The translations under genes and the position numbers were made by a program. Source: Thermoanaerobaculia bacterium (GTDB lineage Bacteria > Acidobacteriota > Thermoanaerobaculia > Gp7-AA8). Taken from it: a DNA stretch of 64,000 bases. Location: NCBI GenBank assembly GCA_035546335.1, contig DATKDP010000002.1, positions 8,774-72,773 of the forward strand, read 5' to 3'. The first letter of the stretch is position 1; each line of letters begins with the position of its first letter. The notes beneath the pieces are model-generated. The model did no database searches, was not told the DNA's origin, and worked only from the letters and a program-made list of their open reading frames with translations. Below are positions 3,744 to 64,000 of the stretch, piece by piece.

Positions 3744-5042
3744 ATGCTCACGATGCTGACTGACATGAAAGATCTTTCCTCGGTGAAGAAAGCCATCGAA
3801 GTCGAAGTTCCCGCCGACGCCGTGGCTCGCGAGATCGAGACGGTCACGGGGGAGTTCGGCCGGAAGGCGAAGGTGCCGGGCTTTCGTCCCGGAAAGGTTC
3901 CCAGCACGGTGATCCGCAAGCGCTTCCTGACCGACATCCGGGAAGAGGTGGTTCAGCGGCTGCTGCCGCGATTCTTCCACGACGCGCTCGCCGAAAAGGG
4001 AATGGTGGCTGTCGGCAGCCCGGATGTGCGGCGTGTCGATCCGCTCCTCGAGGGGGCGCCGCTGAAGTTCGAGGTGGAGTTCGAGATCAAACCGCAATTC
4101 GAGGTGAAGAACTGGCGGGGGCTCGAGCTCGAGCTCGCCGATGCGACGGTCACCGAAGACGAGGTGACGGCGATGATCGAACGGCTGCGGGACCAGGCCA
4201 GCACGTTCCGGCCCGTCGAGGGACGCGGCGCGGAAGATGGCGACTACGTAGTGATGAACATCGACACTTCCGGCGAAGGGGTCGAGCCACGACACAGCGA
4301 GTCGGCTCAGATTCAGCTCGGGGAAGAGAGTCCTCTGCCCGAGCTGCACGAGGCACTGCAGGGAAAGCGGCCCGGAGATCAGGCCGTGGTCGAGAAGCGC
4401 CATGGTGAGGATGCGGCGAACGAGGAGATTCGCGGCAAGACGGTTCGCTACGACATCGTGATCCGGGAGCTGCGCACGCGCGAGCGGCCGGATGTGACCG
4501 ACGAGATGGCCAGGAGCTTCGGCTGGGAATCGATCGCCGAGATGCGAGAGAGGATCTCCGAAGATCTGCGGGGCCACAAGGAGCACGAGTCGCTCCGTGC
4601 ACGGCGGGAAGAGGCGGCGAACAAGCTCGTCGAGATGCACTATTTCGAACTGCCGCAGTCGCTCGTCGACGAAGAGCTTGGAAGCTCGCTTCGAAACTAT
4701 GCCCGCTATCTCGCTTCGCAGGGAGTCGATGTGGAGAATGCCGAGATCGACTGGCAGAGGCTTCAGCGCGAGTTCCTTCCCGACGCGGAGAAGAGGACGA
4801 GGCGGGGATTGATTCTGGACGCGATCGGACGCGAAGAGAAGATCACGATCACCGATGCGGAAGTGGATGCGGAGATCCGGAGAGCAGCGGAAGGGAGTGC
4901 CAAGGAATTCGCCGAGGTCAAGCAGCGCTTACGGAAGGGCGGCGGATACGAGCAGTTGCGGATGACGATGATGCAGGAGAAGGCCCTCGATTCCGTCGTC
5001 AGCGAAGCGCGGCTGGTCCCTGCGGCCGGAGTCGCCCCCTGA
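3744..5042 (+). CDS. tig: Trigger factor
   Basis: N-terminal ribosome-binding signature GFRPGKVP and overall trigger-factor layout, in the conserved position upstream of clpP-clpX. Start uncertain (ATG at 3744, 3753 or 3765). The longer ORF from 3645 overlaps the tRNA and is rejected. Confidence 0.9.
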
Positions 5043-5115
5043 GTCCGCCGGTATCGCCTGTGGTAGTGTTCCGCCGCCAGGCATTCGCAGCAGGCAAAGG
5101 AAGAGTGAGGAGACT

Positions 5116-5703
5116 ATGGTGCTCATTCCGATGGTGGTGGAGCAGACGAGCCGGGGCGAGCGCGCCTACGACATCTACTCCCGGCTGCTGAAAGACAACG
5201 TCATTTTCCTGGGACAGCCGATCGACGACACGGTCTCGAATCTCGTCATCGCCCAGATGCTGTTTCTCGAGGCGGAGAACCCGGAGAAGGACATCTCGAT
5301 CTACATCAACTCCCCGGGCGGCTCCATCACCTCGGGTCTGGCGATCTACGACACGATGCAGTACGTGAAGCCCGACATCACCACGATCTGCATCGGTCAG
5401 GCGGCCTCGATGGCCGCGGTCCTGCTCGCGGCGGGAAAAAAGGGGAAGCGGTATGCGCTTCCGAACTCGCGTGTTCTGATTCACCAGCCGCTCATGTACG
5501 GGCTTGGAGGACAGGCGAGCGAGATCGACATTCACGCGCGCGACATCATGAAGATGAAGCAGCGGATCAATGCGATTCTGGCCAACCACACGGGGCAGCC
5601 GATCGAGAAGATCGACCGCGACACCGACCGTGACTACATCCTCCAGGCGGACGATTCGGTCGAGTACGGCCTGGTCGATCAGGTGATCGCCAAGCGCGAG
5701 TGA
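5116..5703 (+). CDS. clpP: ATP-dependent Clp protease proteolytic subunit
   Basis: 195 aa, near-canonical ClpP sequence ([15 protein letters not shown]...[19 protein letters not shown]...GQAASMAA). GAGGAG RBS upstream. Confidence 0.97.
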
Positions 5704-35623: not shown

Positions 35624-35679
35624 TTTCAGGTTTCAGGTTTCAGGTTTCAGGTTTCAGGTTTCAGGTTTCAGGTTTCAGG
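35624..35679. repeat. Perfect heptanucleotide tandem array (TTTCAGG)x8
   Basis: Eight identical 7-nt units counted directly, 56 nt with no mismatch, plus partial units on both sides. It lies between the putP remnant and ada. Confidence 0.97.
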
Positions 35680-35756
35680 TTCGCCTCCCTCTTTTGCGCA
35701 GTCCTGAAACATCCATGTCGCATTTTCGGTGGAAAGTCTCGATCCGACCCCCTACG

Positions 35757-36857
35757 ATGAGACTCATGACGCCGAACCTCCTTCCCGAGCGCGTGATGAT
35801 GAAGGCATTGCTCGAGCGCGATGCCTCGTTCGATGGACTCTTCGTCGCGGCGGTCACGACCACCGGCATCTTCTGCAAGCCGTCGTGTCCGGCACGCAAG
35901 CCGCTGGAGCGCAACGTCCGTTTTTTTCCCTCGCCGGCGCAGGCGTCGTTCGCCGGCTACCGTCCCTGCAAGCGGTGCCGACCGCTGAGCGTCGCCGCTG
36001 CTCCCGAATGGGTCGAACGACTTTTTCGCGAGATCGAAGCGAGGGAGGACAAGCGGATCCGCGATTCGGAGCTGCGCCGGATGGGAATCGATCCCGCCCG
36101 GGCGCGCCGGTTCTTTCAGAAGCACTACGGCCTGACGTTTCAGGCATACGTTCGAGCTCGCCGGCTGGGCTCCGCGCTCGCTCGGATCCGCAGCGGCGAA
36201 CCGCTCGAGGAGGTCGTCTTCGCCAGCGGGTACGAATCGCACAGCGGATTCCGCGACGCATTCTCGAGAACGTTCGGCAAGCCGCCCGGTCGCAGCCGCT
36301 CCACCGACTGTGTCGTCACCTCGCTCCTCGACACGCCTCTCGGCCCGATGCTCGCCGGCGCGACCACCGCCGGCGTCTGCCTTCTCGAGTTCAGTGACCG
36401 GAGAATGCTGGAGTTTCAGCTGCGCACCATTCGTCGCCTCTGTTTATGTGCGATCGTTCCGGGGAGCAACCGCTGGATCGAGCAGATGAACCGCGAGCTG
36501 GGAGAGTACTTCGCCGGCATGCGCCGCCGGTTCGATGTTGCTCTGGTCACGCCCGGGACCTCGTTTCAGCAGCGCGTCTGGACGGCGGTTCGCGCCGTCC
36601 CCTTCGGCGAGACGCGGACCTATGAAGACATCGCGCAGGAGATCGGAGAGCCGTCCGCCGTACGAGCGGCCGGCCATGCCAACGGGCTGAACCGGATCGC
36701 GATTCTGATTCCGTGTCACCGGCTCGTCCGCAAAGATGGAACACTGGGCGGCTACGGCGGAGGGCTGTGGAGAAAGCGGCGCCTGCTCGATCTGGAGGAG
36801 GGCGCCGTGGGCGCGCTGTCCGTCGGCGCATCAAAGCTCCGAACCGCTCATCAGTAG
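35757..36857 (+). CDS. ada: Bifunctional Ada-type regulator: Ada zinc methyl-acceptor domain, AraC HTH and O6-methylguanine-DNA methyltransferase
   Basis: TTGIFCKPSCPARK...GYRPCKRCRP (Ada N-domain), an AraC-type HTH (SGYESHSGFRDAFSRTFG), and a C-terminal MGMT with IPCHRLV. Alternative start at 35715. Confidence 0.88.
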   Translation: MRLMTPNLLPERVMMKALLERDASFDGLFVAAVTTTGIFCKPSCPARKPLERNVRFFPSPAQASFAGYRPCKRCRPLSVAAAPEWVERLFREIEAREDKRIRDSELRRMGIDPARARRFFQKHYGLTFQAYVRARRLGSALARIRSGEPLEEVVFASGYESHSGFRDAFSRTFGKPPGRSRSTDCVVTSLLDTPLGPMLAGATTAGVCLLEFSDRRMLEFQLRTIRRLCLCAIVPGSNRWIEQMNRELGEYFAGMRRRFDVALVTPGTSFQQRVWTAVRAVPFGETRTYEDIAQEIGEPSAVRAAGHANGLNRIAILIPCHRLVRKDGTLGGYGGGLWRKRRLLDLEEGAVGALSVGASKLRTAHQ

Positions 36858-38702: not shown

Positions 38703-38753
38703 CGTGGAGCTTATACGAATGCGATGCCGCGAGACAGGGCCTCGCCCGGTGAG

Positions 38754-38830
38754 TCTCGAGTCCCGAGTTCCGAGCCTCGAGTCCCCGAGTTCGAGTCTCG
38801 AGCCTCGAGTCCCGAGCCTCGAGCCTCGAG
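38754..38830. repeat. Degenerate heptanucleotide tandem array (YYYCGAG)x11
   Basis: Units TCTCGAG TCCCGAG TTCCGAG CCTCGAG TCCCCGAG TTCGAG TCTCGAG CCTCGAG TCCCGAG CCTCGAG CCTCGAG. It contains six CTCGAG palindromes. Confidence 0.9.
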
Positions 38831-38889
38831 TCTCACCCGCAGGGCGTCGAGCCGGGCATGGTCGTACCCGAGCAGTTCGTGGAGCGTCT

Positions 38890-47845: not shown

Positions 47846-50800
47846 ATGTCACAACGCAGCGCAGCCGCTGTCCGTGTCGTGGGAATCGGTGCATCGGCGG
47901 GAGGTCTCGACGCATTCCTCGATCTCGTCGGCGCCATTCCGGCCGACACGGGACTGGCCTTCGTGCTGATCCAGCACCTCGATCCGCGCCACGACAGCAT
48001 GCTCGGCGAGATCCTCGCCGGGGCCGCGTCGATTCCCGTGCAGGAAGTGGCGGACGGGATGCGCATCGAGCGCGATCGGGTCTACGTGATTCCGCCCGAT
48101 ACGCAGATGACCATGGATGGCGATGTCCTGCGGCTGATCCCGCGAACGCCGAAGGCGCCGCATCGTCCGCTGGACACGTTCTTCTCCTCGTTGGCGAAGG
48201 ACCGGAAACGCTTCGCGATCGGCGTAGTACTCTCCGGCAACGACGCGGACGGAGCTCTCGGCCTGCAGGCGATTCGCGACGCCGGAGGAATTACCTTCGC
48301 TCAGAATCCGGAAAGTGCGAAGTTCGACGTGATGCCGCGGGCAGCAGCCGTCGCCGCGGACTTCGTGCTGCCGCCCGCCGGAATCGCCGAGCGGCTGGTG
48401 AGCATCGCCCGGCGCGGCGGCTCGGAAGAAAGCAAACAGTCGCGGCATCAGAATGCGGACGAGCTCGACCGCATTCTCGAACTGCTGCACGCGCGGCATC
48501 CGACCGACTTCAGCCATTTCAAACGAGCAAGCGTCGAGCGGCGCATCCTGAGGCGTGTTCTTCTGGGGGGCCACGAAAACGTCAGCGGGTACGCCGACGC
48601 TCTCGAGAAAGACGACGACGCAGTCGAGACGCTCTACCACGATCTTCTGATCGGCGTGACTTCGTTCTTCCGCGAGCCGGGGCGCTTCGAGGCACTGAAG
48701 AGGGTCGCCTTTCCCGCGATCCTCGAGAACCGCGGACCCGACGACAGCATCCGGATCTGGGTCGCGGGCTGCTCGACGGGCGAGGAGGTGTACTCGCTGG
48801 GCATCACGCTGCTGGAGTTTCTCGACGGCCGTGCCGATGCGCCGCGAATCGTCATCTACGGGACCGACATCAACGAGAAATCGCTGAAGAAGGCGCGGAC
48901 CGCGGTGTACTCGGAGCGTGCGGTGAGCGGCGTGTCGCAACGACGCCTGGCGGAGTTCTTCACGCCCGTTCCGGGGGGGTACAAGATCGCGACGGCTCTT
49001 CGCGAGCTGTGCGTCTTCGCCGCGCACGATCTGACACGAGATCCTCCCTACTCGCGGATCGATCTGGTGACCTGTTGCAACGTCCTGATCTACTTCGATC
49101 CGGAGCTGCAGAAGAGAGCGGTCGCGATGCTGCAGTACGCGATTGCCCAGGGGGGATTCCTGATGCTCGGAAGCTCGGAGGGTCTCCGCGGCACGACGAA
49201 TCAGCTGACCCCCGTTTCGGCCAAGCCGCTGATCTATCGCAAGCTCCAGGTGCCGGCGGCGCTGGCCCCCTTCGACGTTGAGCGCCCACCTCGGTCGAGC
49301 GTTACCGCAGCCGCTCCTCTCCAGCACCGCATCGCGGGCGGAGCTCACGTCGATCGAAACAACGAGGACGACGCCTTCCTCGCCTTCCATCTCGCTCCGT
49401 GCGGGGTGCTCGTGGACGGACAGATGGAGATCACGCGTATCCGTGGTGACGTGTCTCCTTTCATCGCGCTCGAACCGGGAGACGCGTCACTCGATCTGTT
49501 CAGCCTGGTGCGGCATCACGAGATGCTCGCGGTGCTGCGAGGCGCAGTCCGCCGTGCGTTCCGCGAGCAGATCACCGTGACCAGGGAGAACATTCTGGTG
49601 ATGGACGGCGACGCTCGCCGCACCGTCGGGTTCGATGTGATTCCGTACGGGACTCCTCCCCCGGGACACGAGCGTTGCTGGATCGTGTTCCGCAGCAGCC
49701 TGGTTTCGGCGAATCGCAAGGCCGGGCGGCCGGGCGTTCAGGCGGAGATCGACGGGCTTCGGCAGGCACTGGCCTCGGCCATCGATGATCGCGAGCTTCT
49801 CGCCGAGGAGGCTTCCGCCACGGCCGAGGAAGCACAGTCGAGCGATGAAGAGCTGCGCAGCACAAACGAAGAGCTGGAGACGGCGAAAGAGGAGCTCCAG
49901 TCGGCGAACGAAGAACTGAGCACGCTCAACGACGAGCTCCGGGCGCGCAACACGGCGCTGGTGAAGCTGAACGACGACATCGAGAATCTCCTGGGCGCCG
50001 TGGAGATCCCGATTCTCTTCGTCGGAACCGATCTGACCGTGCGCCGGTTCAACACCACCGCAGGGCTGCTGTTGAACCTGCGCGCCGGCGCGATCGGCCG
50101 GCCTCTCCACGAGGCGAAGTCGGTGCTCGACGTTTCCAATCTGGGGAAGCTCGTCGGAGCGGTCATCGAGACAGCCATGGCCGCGGACGTCGAGGTGCAG
50201 GATGCGATCGGCGACTGGCGGCTGCTGCGCATTCGCGCGTACCGCACAGCCGACGGAAGGATTGACGGTGCCATCGTGGCCGTCCTCGACATCAATGTTC
50301 TGAAGCGAAGCGTCCTGGTCGCTGAAGAAGCGGCGTGTGCCGCCGACATGCTCTCCCAGGCGAGCGTTCTGCTTGCGTCATCGCTCGACTACGAAACGAC
50401 GCTCGAGTCGCTCACACGCCTCTCCACGGCGGCGTTCGCCGACTGGTGCGCCGTGGATCTGGTCAACGAAGATGGCTCGATTCGCCACCTCACCGTCTCG
50501 CACGCCAACCCCGTGCTGCGCGACCTCGCGCTGCAGTTCCAGGAAGTCGCCTTCAGCGAGCCGGAGCGCGCGCCGGGCGCGCCGCAGGCGCTCCTGCAGC
50601 GCAAGTCGGTGCTGCTCACCGACATCGCCGACTCACATTTGTCCGGCGTGCAGCCTGAGGCGAAGATCATGCAGCTCATCGGCGCGCTCGGCGTACGCTC
50701 GCTCATCAGCGTGCCGCTGATCGTCCGCGACAAGGTGCTGGGGACGACGACATTCTCCTCATCACGCCGCCGGTACGACGAAGCCGACCTGCGTCTGGCC

Positions 50801-61339: not shown

Positions 61340-62038
61340 TCATCGGCGCAGCGCCATGAGGGTCAGATCGTCGTTTGGCGCGCGGCCGGCGCGATGCGAC
61401 GCGACCGCTTCGTAGACCAGCGAGGTGAGGCCGTTCGCGTCGAGATGCCTGCCGCGGGCGAGTGTTGCCCGGATCCTGTCGAATCCGAACTCCTCCTCGT
61501 CGGGCGAGAGCGCTTCGAGCAGGCCGTCGCTGTAGAGAAAGAGCGTTGCCTTCTCGTCGAGACGCAGGAGCCGCGTCGCCCAGCGCGAGCAGCAGAGGAT
61601 GCCGACCACCGGTCCTGTGGCCACGACCGGCTCGACCTTGCCGCTCTGGTGGACGATCAGCGACGGAGGATGTCCGGCGTTGACGATCTCCAGTCCGCCC
61701 TCGGCATCCACTCTCCCTGCAGTCAACGTAACGAATCGATTCGGCGGAAGCTCGGGACGGAGCGAGCGATGCAGCTCGTCGATCAGCGAGGCGACCGAAG
61801 GGACGCCGAGGTCGACCATTCGCTCGATCTCCTCCATGACGAGTCCCATCAGAACCGCCGAGTCGATTCCTTTTCCCGCCACGTCGCCGAGCACGAACCA
61901 GAGCCCGCTCGACCTGCGGGCCGAGAAGTAGAAGTCGCCAGTGAAGAGCGAAGCAGGGCAGGATAGAGCGCTGATATCGAAGTCTGCTCGCGCGGGCGGG
62001 GGAACGGCACCGACGCCGGACAAGGCAAGTGCGCTCAT
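61340..62038 (-). CDS. PP2C/SpoIIE-type serine phosphatase, catalytic domain only
   Basis: 232 aa. FTGDFYF...VLGDVAGKGIDSAV...NAGHPP...LYSDGLLEA...NDDLTLMALR motifs. ATGA overlap with the upstream gene. Confidence 0.8.
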   Translation of the reverse strand: MSALALSGVGAVPPPARADFDISALSCPASLFTGDFYFSARRSSGLWFVLGDVAGKGIDSAVLMGLVMEEIERMVDLGVPSVASLIDELHRSLRPELPPNRFVTLTAGRVDAEGGLEIVNAGHPPSLIVHQSGKVEPVVATGPVVGILCCSRWATRLLRLDEKATLFLYSDGLLEALSPDEEEFGFDRIRATLARGRHLDANGLTSLVYEAVASHRAGRAPNDDLTLMALRR

Positions 62039-62931
62039 GCGGTCGCCGCCAGCGGCCGGCATCGCCGGCACGGCCGGAATCCGAGTCGCGCCGCTTCCTG
62101 CTCGCTCCGGAGAGACACGCGATGTGCTTTCCTGATTCGCCTCGCATCGGGGCAGGTGGGGAAGCAGTAGATCTTCGTCGTCGCCGAAGCAACGTAGCGG
62201 AATCCTCGCTCGCCCAGATCGTCGAGCTCGTCGACGATCACTCCCTCCCGCGCGAGAAGTGCACGCTTGAGGGCCGGGCCGAATCCGTAGTTGCCGATCC
62301 CGCCTGAGGAGGGCACGACGCGGTGACATGGAACGACGAAGGGAATCGGATTGCGGGCGCACGCATTGCCGACGGCGCGAATGGCGGCCGGCCTTCCCGC
62401 CTCGCGAGCGACCCAGGCGTAGCTTCGCACCTGGCCCGCGGGAATCTTCACCAGCACCTCGAGGACTTCGCGCTCGAACTGCGGAAGATCGGAAAGATCG
62501 ATCTCAGGGCGGCCGCTCTTCCCTCCTCCGATCGTACGGCGGAGCGCCTCGCGCATTTCTGGCGGCAGCTCTCCACGCTCGGCCTCGCGGCCGAAACGGT
62601 TGCAGTACTCTTCGAGGAGCACCTTCTCCGGGCGATTCGCGAGCGTGACGCGGACGAGCCCTCTCGATGAGAAGACGACCCAGAGGGGCCCGATGTCCGA
62701 CTCGACGATGTCGTAGCGATCGGACAGCGAACGGCGAATCTCCTCGTGGCACGACGAGGGGCAGCGCTCCTTGAGCGCCGGCCCGGCGCCGGCGAGCTCG
62801 TCGATCTCTTCGAGCGAATCGGCGCAGCTCCGGCAATCGTCGAGATGCTCGCGAATCTCGTCGCACGTTCCGCTCTCGAGCTCTTTCGTCCGGAACTGAT
62901 CGAGCCGGACCAATACGCTGTTACATCGCAT
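62035..62931 (-). CDS. Soluble anti-sigma factor fusion: zf-HC2 (ZAS) domain, O6-alkylguanine-DNA alkyltransferase and Ada-type zinc domain
   Basis: 298 aa. HLDDCRSC (HxxxCxxC) at residues ~29-36. MGMT core FEREVLEVLVKIPAGQVRSYAWVA...AIRAVGNACARNPIPFVVPCHRVV. C-terminal IYCFPTCPDARRI...GFRPCRRCRP. No TM helix. The start overlaps the sigma gene by 11 nt. Confidence 0.8.
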   Translation of the reverse strand: MRCNSVLVRLDQFRTKELESGTCDEIREHLDDCRSCADSLEEIDELAGAGPALKERCPSSCHEEIRRSLSDRYDIVESDIGPLWVVFSSRGLVRVTLANRPEKVLLEEYCNRFGREAERGELPPEMREALRRTIGGGKSGRPEIDLSDLPQFEREVLEVLVKIPAGQVRSYAWVAREAGRPAAIRAVGNACARNPIPFVVPCHRVVPSSGGIGNYGFGPALKRALLAREGVIVDELDDLGERGFRYVASATTKIYCFPTCPDARRIRKAHRVSLRSEQEAARLGFRPCRRCRPLAATA

Positions 62932-63505
62932 GAGCGTTCCCCCTTTCCGCGAGCGCGTCGCGCAGAAGCCGCAGGGAGCGGAAGATCTTTCCCCGCAGCG
63001 ACGCCTCGGTGAATCCTGTCGTCTTTGCGATCTCGCCGTACGACATCTCTTCGATGAATCGAAGCGCAATGAGCTCTCTGGTTTCTGACGGAAGGCCGGC
63101 GATGGCCCGATCGAGCCGTGCGATCTCCTCTCGTTTTTCGAGCTCGCTCACCAGATGAACGGCGGGAACGAGCGGTCGAAACCGCGGGTGTTCGGCCTGC
63201 GAGAGCGCTTCCTCCCGCCTGCCCGGAGCGTCGCGCCGTTTGTTGTACGCCAGGTTCCTTCCGATGCGAAACAGCCAGGGCCGGAGCGCCAGCGCGGCAC
63301 ATCGCTCGGCCGTGTATTGGCGAGTCAGCGCGTGATGAGCTCGAATGAACGTATCCTGAACCACTTCCTGCGCATCCTGATCGTTGAGCAGAATCCTGCG
63401 GACGTAATTGAAGAGGGCGTGCTCCCACGTCTCGACCAGACGATCGAAGGCTCCCGGCTCGTGACGGTGCACGGCGAGAGCCGGATTTTCGGACTCATGA
63501 TCCAT
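62921..63505 (-). CDS. ECF-type RNA polymerase sigma-70 family factor
   Basis: Region 2 (FDRLVETWEHALFNYVRRILLNDQDAQEVVQDTFIRA...PWLFRIGRNLAYN) and region 4 (ALRFIEEMSYGEIAKTTGFTEASLRGKIFRSL). ATG 63505 with a GGAGGAG RBS is preferred; the ORF opens at 63550. Confidence 0.85.
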   Translation of the reverse strand: MDHESENPALAVHRHEPGAFDRLVETWEHALFNYVRRILLNDQDAQEVVQDTFIRAHHALTRQYTAERCAALALRPWLFRIGRNLAYNKRRDAPGRREEALSQAEHPRFRPLVPAVHLVSELEKREEIARLDRAIAGLPSETRELIALRFIEEMSYGEIAKTTGFTEASLRGKIFRSLRLLRDALAERGNAHAM

Positions 63506-63553
63506 GCGGGAAGCTTCTCCTCCGATCCAGGAGCTCCTCATGCCTTCCATAAC

Positions 63554-63575
63554 ACGGCTCGAGCCGGTTTCGTTC
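63554..63575 (-). promoter_or_regulatory. Candidate ECF-type autoregulated promoter
   Basis: On the minus strand, GAAC (63575-63572), 15 nt, then CGT (63556-63554). This resembles the GAAC...CGT pattern of many ECF promoters, but the spacing is 1-2 nt short. Confidence 0.25.
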
Positions 63576-63656
63576 GGTGATGATGAAAGGCACCGGGCGG
63601 TTTTCGGTAGAATTCGCTCCGGTGATCGGGTCGCTCGATCGCCAGGAGGAATCTCA

Positions 63657-64000
63657 ATGCGCGTTCCGGCTCTCGTCGTTGCGATTCTGCTGACCGTCAG
63701 CGGCCCCGGCGTTCGCGCCGAAGAAGTTCCGGCGAGGATTCTGATCGCCTATTACAGCGCATCAGGCCACACGCGCACAATGGCCGAGGCGGTCGCGCGA
63801 GGAGCGCGGTCGGTCGAAGGGGCGGTCGTGACGCTGCGCTCGGTCGGAGAAGTGAAGAATGCGGAGCTGTTGGCCGCCGACGCGATCATCGTCGGCTCGC
63901 CGGTCTACAACGCCGCACCAGCGCCCGCGGTACAGCAGTTCATCAACGGATGGCCTTTCGAGAAAGAGCCGCTGAAGGACAAGATCGGCGCAGCCTTCGT
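63657..64000 (+). CDS. Flavodoxin-like fold (WrbA/NAD(P)H:quinone oxidoreductase-like) protein with a signal peptide, 3' end outside window
   Basis: AGGAGGA RBS and ATG 63657. MRVPALVVAILLTVSGPGVRA, then ILIAYYSASGHTRTMAEAVARGA...DAIIVGSPVYN. Open to the window end and absent from the ORF track for that reason. Confidence 0.65.
   Translation, partial: MRVPALVVAILLTVSGPGVRAEEVPARILIAYYSASGHTRTMAEAVARGARSVEGAVVTLRSVGEVKNAELLAADAIIVGSPVYNAAPAPAVQQFINGWPFEKEPLKDKIGAAF

Follow-up and report, generated by a model that had tools for sequence, protein, structure and literature searches.

A three-gene operon in a 64,000-nt stretch of DNA from a Thermoanaerobaculia bacterium (Acidobacteriota), called here the window and the frame for all coordinates, couples an extracytoplasmic function (ECF) sigma factor to a fusion protein that joins a putative zinc-binding anti-sigma (ZAS) domain, an O6-alkylguanine-DNA alkyltransferase (MGMT) and an Ada-type zinc domain (AdaZn) in one polypeptide. 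The analyses show the domain composition of the fusion, intact and strongly conserved catalytic and zinc sites, obligate linkage to an ECF sigma gene and an operon-specific, conserved promoter; both the architecture and the degree to which it is conserved can be regarded as solid. With the chances about evenly balanced, we propose that the locus is a self-contained, positively autoregulated sigma/anti-sigma module whose anti-sigma factor is a single-use DNA-alkylation repair protein. This suicide-sensor mechanism is a hypothesis, and the best-supported reading of the locus.

Reading of the sequence together with its open reading frame (ORF) listing revealed three co-directional minus-strand ORFs, encoding an ECF sigma factor, the ZAS-MGMT-AdaZn fusion and a SpoIIE-type PP2C phosphatase (Table 1). 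The sigma stop codon (62923-62921) falls 11 nt within the fusion gene, and an ATGA at 62038-62035 is common to the fusion and PP2C genes, a 4-nt overlap; the three genes are thus as tightly coupled as an initial annotation of this DNA had described them. Scans of the operon for terminators and sigma-70 promoters yielded nothing informative.

Table 1. Features of the sigma/fusion/PP2C operon, and the canonical ada gene of the same window
Feature	Position	Strand	Remarks
ECF-type autoregulatory promoter (predicted), CGAACGAAACCGGCTCGAGCCGTGTT	63551..63576	minus	-35 CGAACG, 14-nt spacer, -10 CGTGTT
Sigma ORF	62921-63550	minus	conserved start is the ATG at 63541, by orthologue comparison
ECF (group 4) sigma gene	62921-63541	minus	206 aa from the conserved leaderless ATG
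Fusion gene	62035-62931	minus	298 aa
Putative ZAS domain, class I anti-sigma domain (fusion residues 1-70)	62722..62931	minus	four predicted helices; zinc ligands C3, H29, C33, C36
Two-domain O6-alkylguanine-DNA alkyltransferase (fusion residues 71-241)	62209..62721	minus	acceptor Cys202, codon 62326-62328, within PCHRV
Ada-type Cys4 zinc domain (fusion residues 242-298 and stop)	62035..62208	minus	C256, C260, C288, C291
PP2C gene	61340-62038	minus	232 aa; last gene of the operon
Canonical ada	35757-36857	plus	Ada_Zn_binding, HTH_18 and DNA_binding_1

The greater part of the fusion is a DNA alkyltransferase. Pfam DNA_binding_1 (PF01035) matches residues 151-231 (3.3e-30), and the NCBIfam Ada model aligns residues 69-230. 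The N-terminal MGMT domain has no Pfam match in the fusion (PF02870) and is present by fold: in Foldseek searches about 165 columns were aligned to full-length MGMTs with a TM-score of about 0.8. Structures matched by the alkyltransferase body include E. coli Ada-C (1sfe), human MGMT (1yfh) and M. tuberculosis Ogt (4bhb), among others, with E values of about 1e-12, TM-scores of about 0.8 and 30-33% identity. Residues Y171, R185, N194, P201-C-H-R-V205 and E229 are invariant in a 28-sequence alignment. The AlphaFold2 model built from that alignment (pLDDT 89.3, pTM 0.71) has three parts: four N-terminal helices, a two-domain alpha/beta body spanning residues 71-241 and a small beta/alpha domain at residues 246-293. 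The segments 1-70, 71-241 and 246-293 leave no space for a transmembrane helix, in agreement with the initial annotation, although no transmembrane predictor was used.

The small C-terminal domain matches Pfam Ada_Zn_binding (PF02805) at residues 246-293 (7.2e-11, 42.4 bits against a cut-off of 23). Profile searches find the N-Ada structures 1adn, 1u8b, 1wpk and 1zgw, and Foldseek aligns the tail of the fusion to methylated N-Ada (1wpk) with a probability of 0.99 and 39% identity. In E. coli Ada the residue aligned with C256 is Cys38, a methyl acceptor, and all four cysteines of the fusion (C256, C260, C288 and C291) are invariant in the 28-sequence alignment. The motifs on which the initial annotation had rested its reading (HLDDCRSC, PCHRV, YCFPTC and RPCRRC) are all found in the fusion sequence, and the complete MGMT core and Ada-type zinc site that it had claimed are borne out by PF01035, PF02805 and the fold matches together, with catalysis remaining a prediction. 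Family proteins stop 2-5 residues past the last zinc cysteine. The window fusion has an Ala-rich C-terminus, LAATA (62035-62052, minus strand); an AA ending occurs in 78 of the 119 family members and an [AST]A ending in 101. Such an Ala-Ala tail resembles ClpXP-type tails, and by this analogy the C-terminus may be a Clp-type degron. Similar C-terminal tails are carried by the relatives without a ZAS motif that are described below.

The nature of the N-terminal domain is better supported in the family than in the window protein itself. A profile of fusion residues 1-78 matched, in the PDB, the anti-sigma factors RsiW (5.5e-4), DdvA (1.5e-3), RslA (0.017), RsrA (0.095) and ChrR (0.45), in each case with HxxxCxxC in register; the top-ranked match, a C2H2 zinc-finger array, was regarded as spurious. 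The NCBIfam RsrA anti-sigma model matches residues 2-72 weakly (2.3e-5). The HMMER alignment of residues 3-41 to RsrA (5frf) is ungapped, so the spacing between C3 and H29 is the same as between the ligands of RsrA. All four putative ligands (C3, H29, C33 and C36) are invariant in one alignment (A2); in the 28-sequence alignment H29, C33 and C36 are invariant and C3 nearly so. T15 of this domain is nearly invariant. AlphaFold2 places helices at residues 3-14, 20-32, 34-53 and 59-70 or 61-69, with a pLDDT of 91-98 across residues 1-50. Searched against a library of 1.84 billion proteins, the N-terminal profile retrieved 14,126 representatives at E<=1e-3, and the six non-family top matches that were inspected are all zf-HC2 proteins. 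The fusion N-terminus is probably a class I ZAS anti-sigma domain. Some of the library matches, among them P0121, P0123, P0125 and P0165, carry two to five tandem zf-HC2 domains, and P0123 (716 aa) combines them with a Ser/Thr kinase domain.

The fusion belongs to a family. The homologue search yielded at least 120 clusters; 119 of them are 280-312 aa long, at 46-55% identity. Those with a named source stem from Acidobacteria or Thermoanaerobaculia metagenome bins and carry as their sole annotation methylated-DNA-protein-cysteine methyltransferase. HxxxCxxC is present in all 119 full-length homologues, the longer pattern M-x-C-x25-HxxxCxxC in 109, PCHRV in 117 and Cx3C...CxxC in all 119. A single sequence, P0124, shows ZAS-AdaZn without the MGMT C-domain; it has a deletion between two EGVD repeats, may be an artefact and was not used. 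Fifteen ZAS-MGMT-AdaZn loci were examined for their surroundings: the window and those numbered L001, L002, L004-L011 and L084-L087. An ECF sigma gene lies directly upstream of the fusion in 15 of 15. In the 11 loci first examined the 11-nt overlap between sigma and fusion genes is identical (11/11), and the flanking genes are otherwise unrelated. The initial annotation had named a one-off fusion artefact as what would overturn its reading; the pairing in 15/15 loci shows that the fusion is no such artefact.

Counts by domain architecture, with one genome scanned per species, extend the linkage beyond this family. An ECF sigma gene lies directly upstream of 11/11 genes for ZAS-MGMT-AdaZn proteins, of 6/6 for ZAS-MGMT proteins (Eremiobacterota), of 41/43 for MGMT-AdaZn proteins without the ZAS motif and of 3/9 for plain MGMT. 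The group without ZAS is drawn from Acidimicrobiia, Chloroflexota, Dormibacterota, Actinomycetes and some Acidobacteriota, and its genes usually overlap the sigma gene by ATGA. Its proteins have a mere N-terminal extension of 30-45 aa, in which no Pfam anti-sigma domain was found. These counts identify the protein that combines alkyltransferase and zinc domain as the constant partner of these sigma factors, with ZAS as an optional part that particular lineages have either gained or kept. At locus L006 a second MGMT-AdaZn paralogue without ZAS (4596-5678) follows the ZAS-MGMT-AdaZn gene, in the position that PP2C holds elsewhere.

The sigma protein (206-209 aa) matches only regions 2 and 4 in Pfam (Sigma70_r2, 2.7e-9; Sigma70_r4_2, 2e-11), and the lack of both region 1.1 and region 3 places it among group 4 (ECF) sigma factors. 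The NCBIfam model sigma70-ECF (TIGR02937) scores 73.9 bits against a cut-off of 42.9, and the nearest solved structures are AlgU, RpoE, SigE and SigW. In a rough neighbour-joining (NJ) tree the clade of the window sigma separates from the sigmas of the non-ZAS group, including the actinobacterial MGMT-linked loci. The N-terminus of the window sigma, MRSSWIGGE (its first nine codons, 63514-63541, minus strand), fits the motif M-[KR]-[NS]-S-W-[TIS]-G-G-[ED], which occurs at the same position in L001, L002, L005, L007, L009, L011, L084, L086 and L087. This peptide is kept at the protein level, with codons varying synonymously across orthologues. The possibility that the "SWTGGE" codons are instead a Shine-Dalgarno sequence (GGAGGA) in a 5' untranslated region, followed by a downstream start, was rejected: the GG residues are mostly GGC/GGT in the orthologues, in L002 no other in-frame start codon is available, and the synonymous variation speaks against it as well.

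Upstream of this conserved start, CGAACG-N14-YGTGTT or a close variant precedes the sigma gene in 15/15 ZAS-type loci. There is a single exact match in the 64-kb window and a single one in each of L001-L005, L007, L009, L010 and L011, always just upstream of sigma; the pattern is also present in L084-L087, and in slightly relaxed form in L006 (AGTGTT) and L008 (GGGGTT). A looser GAAC-N16-GTGTT gave no further match on either strand in 185 kb scanned. A site with one mismatch at 50413-50438 was rejected as a regulon target, given its antisense position within a 1301-aa ORF and a chance expectation of 0.77 such sites. Within the sequence scanned, the operon is its own sole visible target. The sigma ATG of the window lies 9 nt past the -10 element, and in 11/15 ZAS-type loci the start codon follows it by 8-10 nt; this short distance, with no alternative in-frame start in L002, suggests that the mRNA is leaderless or nearly so. 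The non-ZAS loci (L012-L063) have a promoter motif of their own, TGCAAC-N15/16-G[TG]GTTC, in 35/44 cases, with a similar -10 element and, in many loci, a start codon about 9-12 nt later. With its AAC-type -35, its CGT-type -10 and predicted co-transcription with a regulator, the locus looks like an autoregulated ECF promoter region. Taken together, the conservation, position and uniqueness of this predicted promoter indicate positive autoregulation, and we infer that it is used by the operon's own sigma.

These features suggest a model for the circuit. At rest, the N-terminal ZAS domain of the fusion would hold the ECF sigma, as its domain identity and the coupling of the two genes imply. The rest of the fusion would scan DNA and take up alkyl groups irreversibly, the role to which its intact, invariant catalytic sites point: those of O6-alkylguanine and O4-alkylthymine would pass to Cys202, and those of methylphosphotriesters to Cys256. 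Alkylation might then inactivate the anti-sigma through a conformational change, or through destabilisation and proteolysis, possibly by way of the Ala-Ala C-terminus. Free sigma would transcribe the operon from CGAACG-N14-CGTGTT, a promoter established by its conservation, giving more sigma, fresh unalkylated repair/anti-sigma protein and PP2C; the new anti-sigma would repair DNA and re-capture sigma, so that the circuit sustains the supply of a suicide enzyme. In function the circuit would resemble the adaptive response of Ada, with a sigma/anti-sigma pair as its basis. The initial annotation had called the switch non-resettable. This holds for each molecule, which would be used once, but not for the circuit: with the conserved promoter its own, new anti-sigma would be made whenever sigma is free, and the switch would reset by resynthesis.

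Several observations weigh against the suicide-sensor model. The zf-HC2 match of the window fusion (residues 16-37, E 0.0045, 17.5 bits) is under the gathering score of 22.2. Of the domain searches proposed for the fusion, PF01035 and PF02805 succeeded, PF02870 found no match and PF13490 (zf-HC2) stayed sub-threshold. The claim of an anti-sigma N-terminus stands at the level of the family, where zf-HC2 matches 24/28 members at E<=0.01 (best E 1.4e-6) and the PDB profile matches are to anti-sigma factors, and less well for the window protein itself. Foldseek with the isolated N-terminal domain ranks RskA and RslA first and second with non-significant E values of 2.0 and 3.7. The same genome already holds a canonical Ada. 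The promoter scan took in 64 kb from this genome and, for each relative, about 8 kb; a larger regulon is possible. The model also leaves the PP2C and the conserved sigma N-terminal peptide unexplained. Lastly, the RsrA-like spacing C-x25-H-x3-C-x2-C suggests that the ZAS site itself could be the sensor.

This last point leads to the main rival. RsrA is sensitive to thiol oxidation, and the ZAS zinc-thiolate of the fusion could be a redox or electrophile switch of the same kind: oxidation or direct alkylation of C3, C33 or C36 would expel the zinc and free sigma, with MGMT and the Ada-type zinc domain carried along as repair cargo that is produced together with the response and does not trigger it. 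The invariance of C3-H29-C33-C36 and the ungapped alignment of residues 3-41 to RsrA, with the same Cys-His spacing, fit such a switch, and zinc-bound thiolates are good nucleophiles, as the Ada site shows (PMC4437013). Yet an ECF sigma gene accompanies 41/43 MGMT-AdaZn proteins even though these lack the ZAS motif, which makes the ZAS site unlikely to be the conserved sensing element of the wider family, and a passenger domain would need no strict conservation of acceptor cysteines, though repair function alone could explain that conservation. Sensing at the ZAS site is in our view unlikely. Less probable still is that the fusion acts as a positive factor, which once alkylated would contact the ECF sigma or RNA polymerase and aid transcription, as methylated Ada does with sigma70. 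An interaction of Ada with sigma subunits is documented at E. coli promoters, in work cited by PMC4437013, and the non-ZAS relatives have no recognisable anti-sigma domain; but the known members of the ZAS-type domain present in the window protein and its family are inhibitors, and Pfam finds no helix-turn-helix (HTH) or other sequence-specific DNA-binding module in the fusion. We regard this as a very remote alternative.

The third gene bears on a different rival, in which phosphorylation is the signal. The PP2C protein matches Pfam SpoIIE (PF07228) at 7e-41, keeps the motifs GDF, GDVAGKG, (S/T)DG and DD.T in 10 orthologues and has M. tuberculosis Rv1364c as its nearest solved structure. The initial annotation had described a phosphatase without sensor or partner, and the gene does encode a stand-alone SpoIIE domain: neither a Ser/Thr kinase, an FHA protein, a second ECF sigma nor a second PP2C was found in the window, and neither a STAS protein nor an RsbW-type/GHKL kinase in the operon or in the gene tables of seven related loci. 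The operon thus lacks the STAS protein and RsbW-type kinase that make up a partner-switching module together with PP2C. A kinase in L086 and FHA regulators in L084 and L086 were rejected as partners, being neither conserved nor present in the window. The regulators combine Trans_reg_C and FHA and lie just downstream of the cassette (L084 6789-7451; L086 6082-6732), and a Pkinase-FGE-sulfatase protein is encoded upstream of it in L086; other loci do not conserve either arrangement. The PP2C follows the fusion in only about two thirds of ZAS-type loci (10/15), being absent from L004, L006, L008, L010 and L085 and from essentially all non-ZAS relatives.

A housekeeping Ser/Thr kinase might nevertheless modify the anti-sigma or the sigma, with PP2C reversing the mark and alkyl transfer being merely the enzymatic job of the fusion. 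An active-looking PP2C, translationally coupled in 10/15 loci, speaks for such a scheme. Its presence, moreover, tracks a conserved sigma N-terminus that contains Ser or Thr: the peptide is found in 10/10 ZAS-type loci with PP2C and in 0-1 of the 5 without. RseA provides a precedent (PMC11173970), and T15 of the anti-sigma domain is nearly invariant. Against this stand the 5/15 ZAS-type loci and the non-ZAS relatives that do without a PP2C, and the lack of any kinase in the window or conserved in the neighbourhoods; the co-occurrence of PP2C and sigma peptide may itself reflect shared ancestry of one subclade (rough NJ tree). Phosphorylation as the primary signal seems to us improbable. Because the cassette is the only conserved unit, sigma or anti-sigma would be the most economical substrates of the PP2C, and a role as an accessory feedback phosphatase on phosphorylated sigma or anti-sigma is plausible, if weakly supported.

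The suicide-sensor model has a precedent in E. coli Ada, where C38 and C321 accept methyl groups irreversibly, in a suicidal reaction that switches on a regulator (PMC4437013). The fusion has the same two suicide acceptor modules, a Cys4 site with C256 as the Cys38 equivalent and PCHRV with C202, and in both systems the sensor is the repair enzyme itself, encoded in its own autoregulated operon (predicted as such for the fusion). In contrast with canonical Ada, which has an AraC-type HTH and the order Zn-HTH-MGMT, the fusion is arranged in reverse (ZAS-MGMT-Zn), has no HTH, and lacks the first ~17 positions of the Ada_Zn_binding profile in its zinc domain; its output would be the release of an ECF sigma instead of direct promoter binding. 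The window also contains the canonical, AraC-type Ada noted in the initial annotation, where the expected Ada_Zn_binding, HTH_18 and DNA_binding_1 domains were found. The fusion shares 39% identity with it in the zinc domain and 40% in the MGMT core. About 75 nt upstream of this canonical ada gene lie 8.3 perfect copies of the heptamer TTTCAGG (35624-35681).

An association of this kind has been catalogued before. According to the one literature link found, the review PMC8999054, which cites Casas-Pastor et al. 2021, the group ECF122, represented from Cellulomonas, has "6-O-methylguanine DNA methyltransferases" as conserved neighbours, no cognate anti-sigma and a mechanism described as unknown; the main text of the 2021 classification paper does not mention this. 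As in the window, an ECF sigma stands beside a conserved 6-O-methylguanine DNA methyltransferase (PMC8999054), and the actinobacterial loci L023, L026, L038, L039 and L074 show this order of sigma, then MGMT(-AdaZn). The non-ZAS sigma-then-MGMT-AdaZn loci are probably ECF122-like groups. They differ from the window in their -35 element (TGCAAC instead of CGAACG) and in the separate NJ clade of the window sigma, and ECF122 is listed without an anti-sigma, whereas the window partner has a recognisable ZAS domain. The novelty suggested initially is to this extent reduced, since the pairing of ECF sigma and methylguanine methyltransferase is already on record as ECF122, but the fusion architecture was not found in the literature searches. 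These full-text searches found no anti-sigma/alkyltransferase fusion, no ECF alkylation response and no ECF system in which a repair enzyme serves as the sensor of DNA damage; nor did they find a description of the ZAS-MGMT-AdaZn architecture, the C-terminal Ada zinc domain, the promoter, the leaderless organisation or the PP2C link.

Likenesses to characterised anti-sigma factors are confined to parts of the system. The N-terminal domain shares with RsrA (of the RsrA-SigR pair), RslA, ChrR and the RsiW N-domain the motif HxxxCxxC and an upstream Cys at RsrA-like spacing, and its four predicted helices may form an anti-sigma domain of the same kind; like the soluble factors of the RsrA type the fusion appears to be cytoplasmic, is encoded directly downstream of its sigma and is predicted to be autoregulated. 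None of these factors is known to be joined to a DNA repair enzyme, whereas alkyltransferase domains account for about 230 of the 298 residues of the fusion. The PP2C can be compared with RsbX of the B. subtilis sigB operon, a sensor-less, stand-alone PP2C that is the last gene product of a sigma-autoregulated operon and serves as a feedback phosphatase; RsbX acts on STAS proteins of the stressosome. The window PP2C is likewise sensor-less, stand-alone and last in a sigma operon, but neither the window operon nor the conserved neighbourhoods contain a STAS protein or an RsbW-type kinase. In M. tuberculosis, phosphorylation of the anti-sigma RseA by PknB leads to its degradation by ClpC1P2 (PMC11173970). 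RseA, the partner of SigE, is a soluble ZAS anti-sigma that is covalently modified and then proteolysed in the cytoplasm, and the Ala-Ala tail and the PP2C make a similar logic conceivable here; the modification proposed for the fusion would, in contrast, be self-alkylation, and no kinase is linked to the locus.

Other features of the region were recorded alongside the operon. A flavodoxin/FMN-reductase-like gene with a hydrophobic, signal-like N-terminus (63657-64000, plus strand) is divergent from the sigma promoter and shares with it an intergenic region of about 115 bp (63542-63656). Short tandem repeats occur at several places: 12 copies of a GAGTCTC-like heptamer in an intergenic position of the window (38751-38834), ACTCCGAGGA-type repeats upstream of the sigma promoter in L007 (about 2120-2215), and three copies of CTCGCAA between genes in L002 (about 4320-4345).

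Among alternative sigma factors the ECF class is the largest, and the known routes of anti-sigma inactivation include proteolysis, conformational change, partner switching and phosphorylation. To our knowledge, many ECF groups, ECF122 included, are without a known regulator or signal. As a wider and more tentative proposal, to which we give somewhat less than even weight, a second, Ada-independent adaptive response to DNA alkylation may exist, in which a dedicated ECF sigma has a suicide alkyltransferase as its anti-sigma: MGMT, in most cases followed by an Ada-type zinc domain at the C-terminus. This response would be widespread, with Acidobacteriota, Actinomycetota, Chloroflexota, Dormibacterota and Eremiobacterota among the groups that have it. 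One inhibitor would be consumed per repair and replaced by the leaderless autoregulated operon, which would make the system a stoichiometric damage counter and a homeostat, and the ZAS version would be the clue that the MGMT partners of ECF122-like sigmas are their missing anti-sigma factors. The model is directly testable: related loci are present in the cultured actinomycetes Nonomuraea sp. and Actinokineospora spheciospongiae, and the analysis defines the promoter as well as both acceptor cysteines and the zinc ligands. If it is true, covalent self-alkylation would join the known routes of anti-sigma inactivation, the methyltransferase neighbours of ECF122-type sigmas would be explained, and the logic of the Ada response would have arisen twice in evolution, the second time with a different transcriptional chassis.

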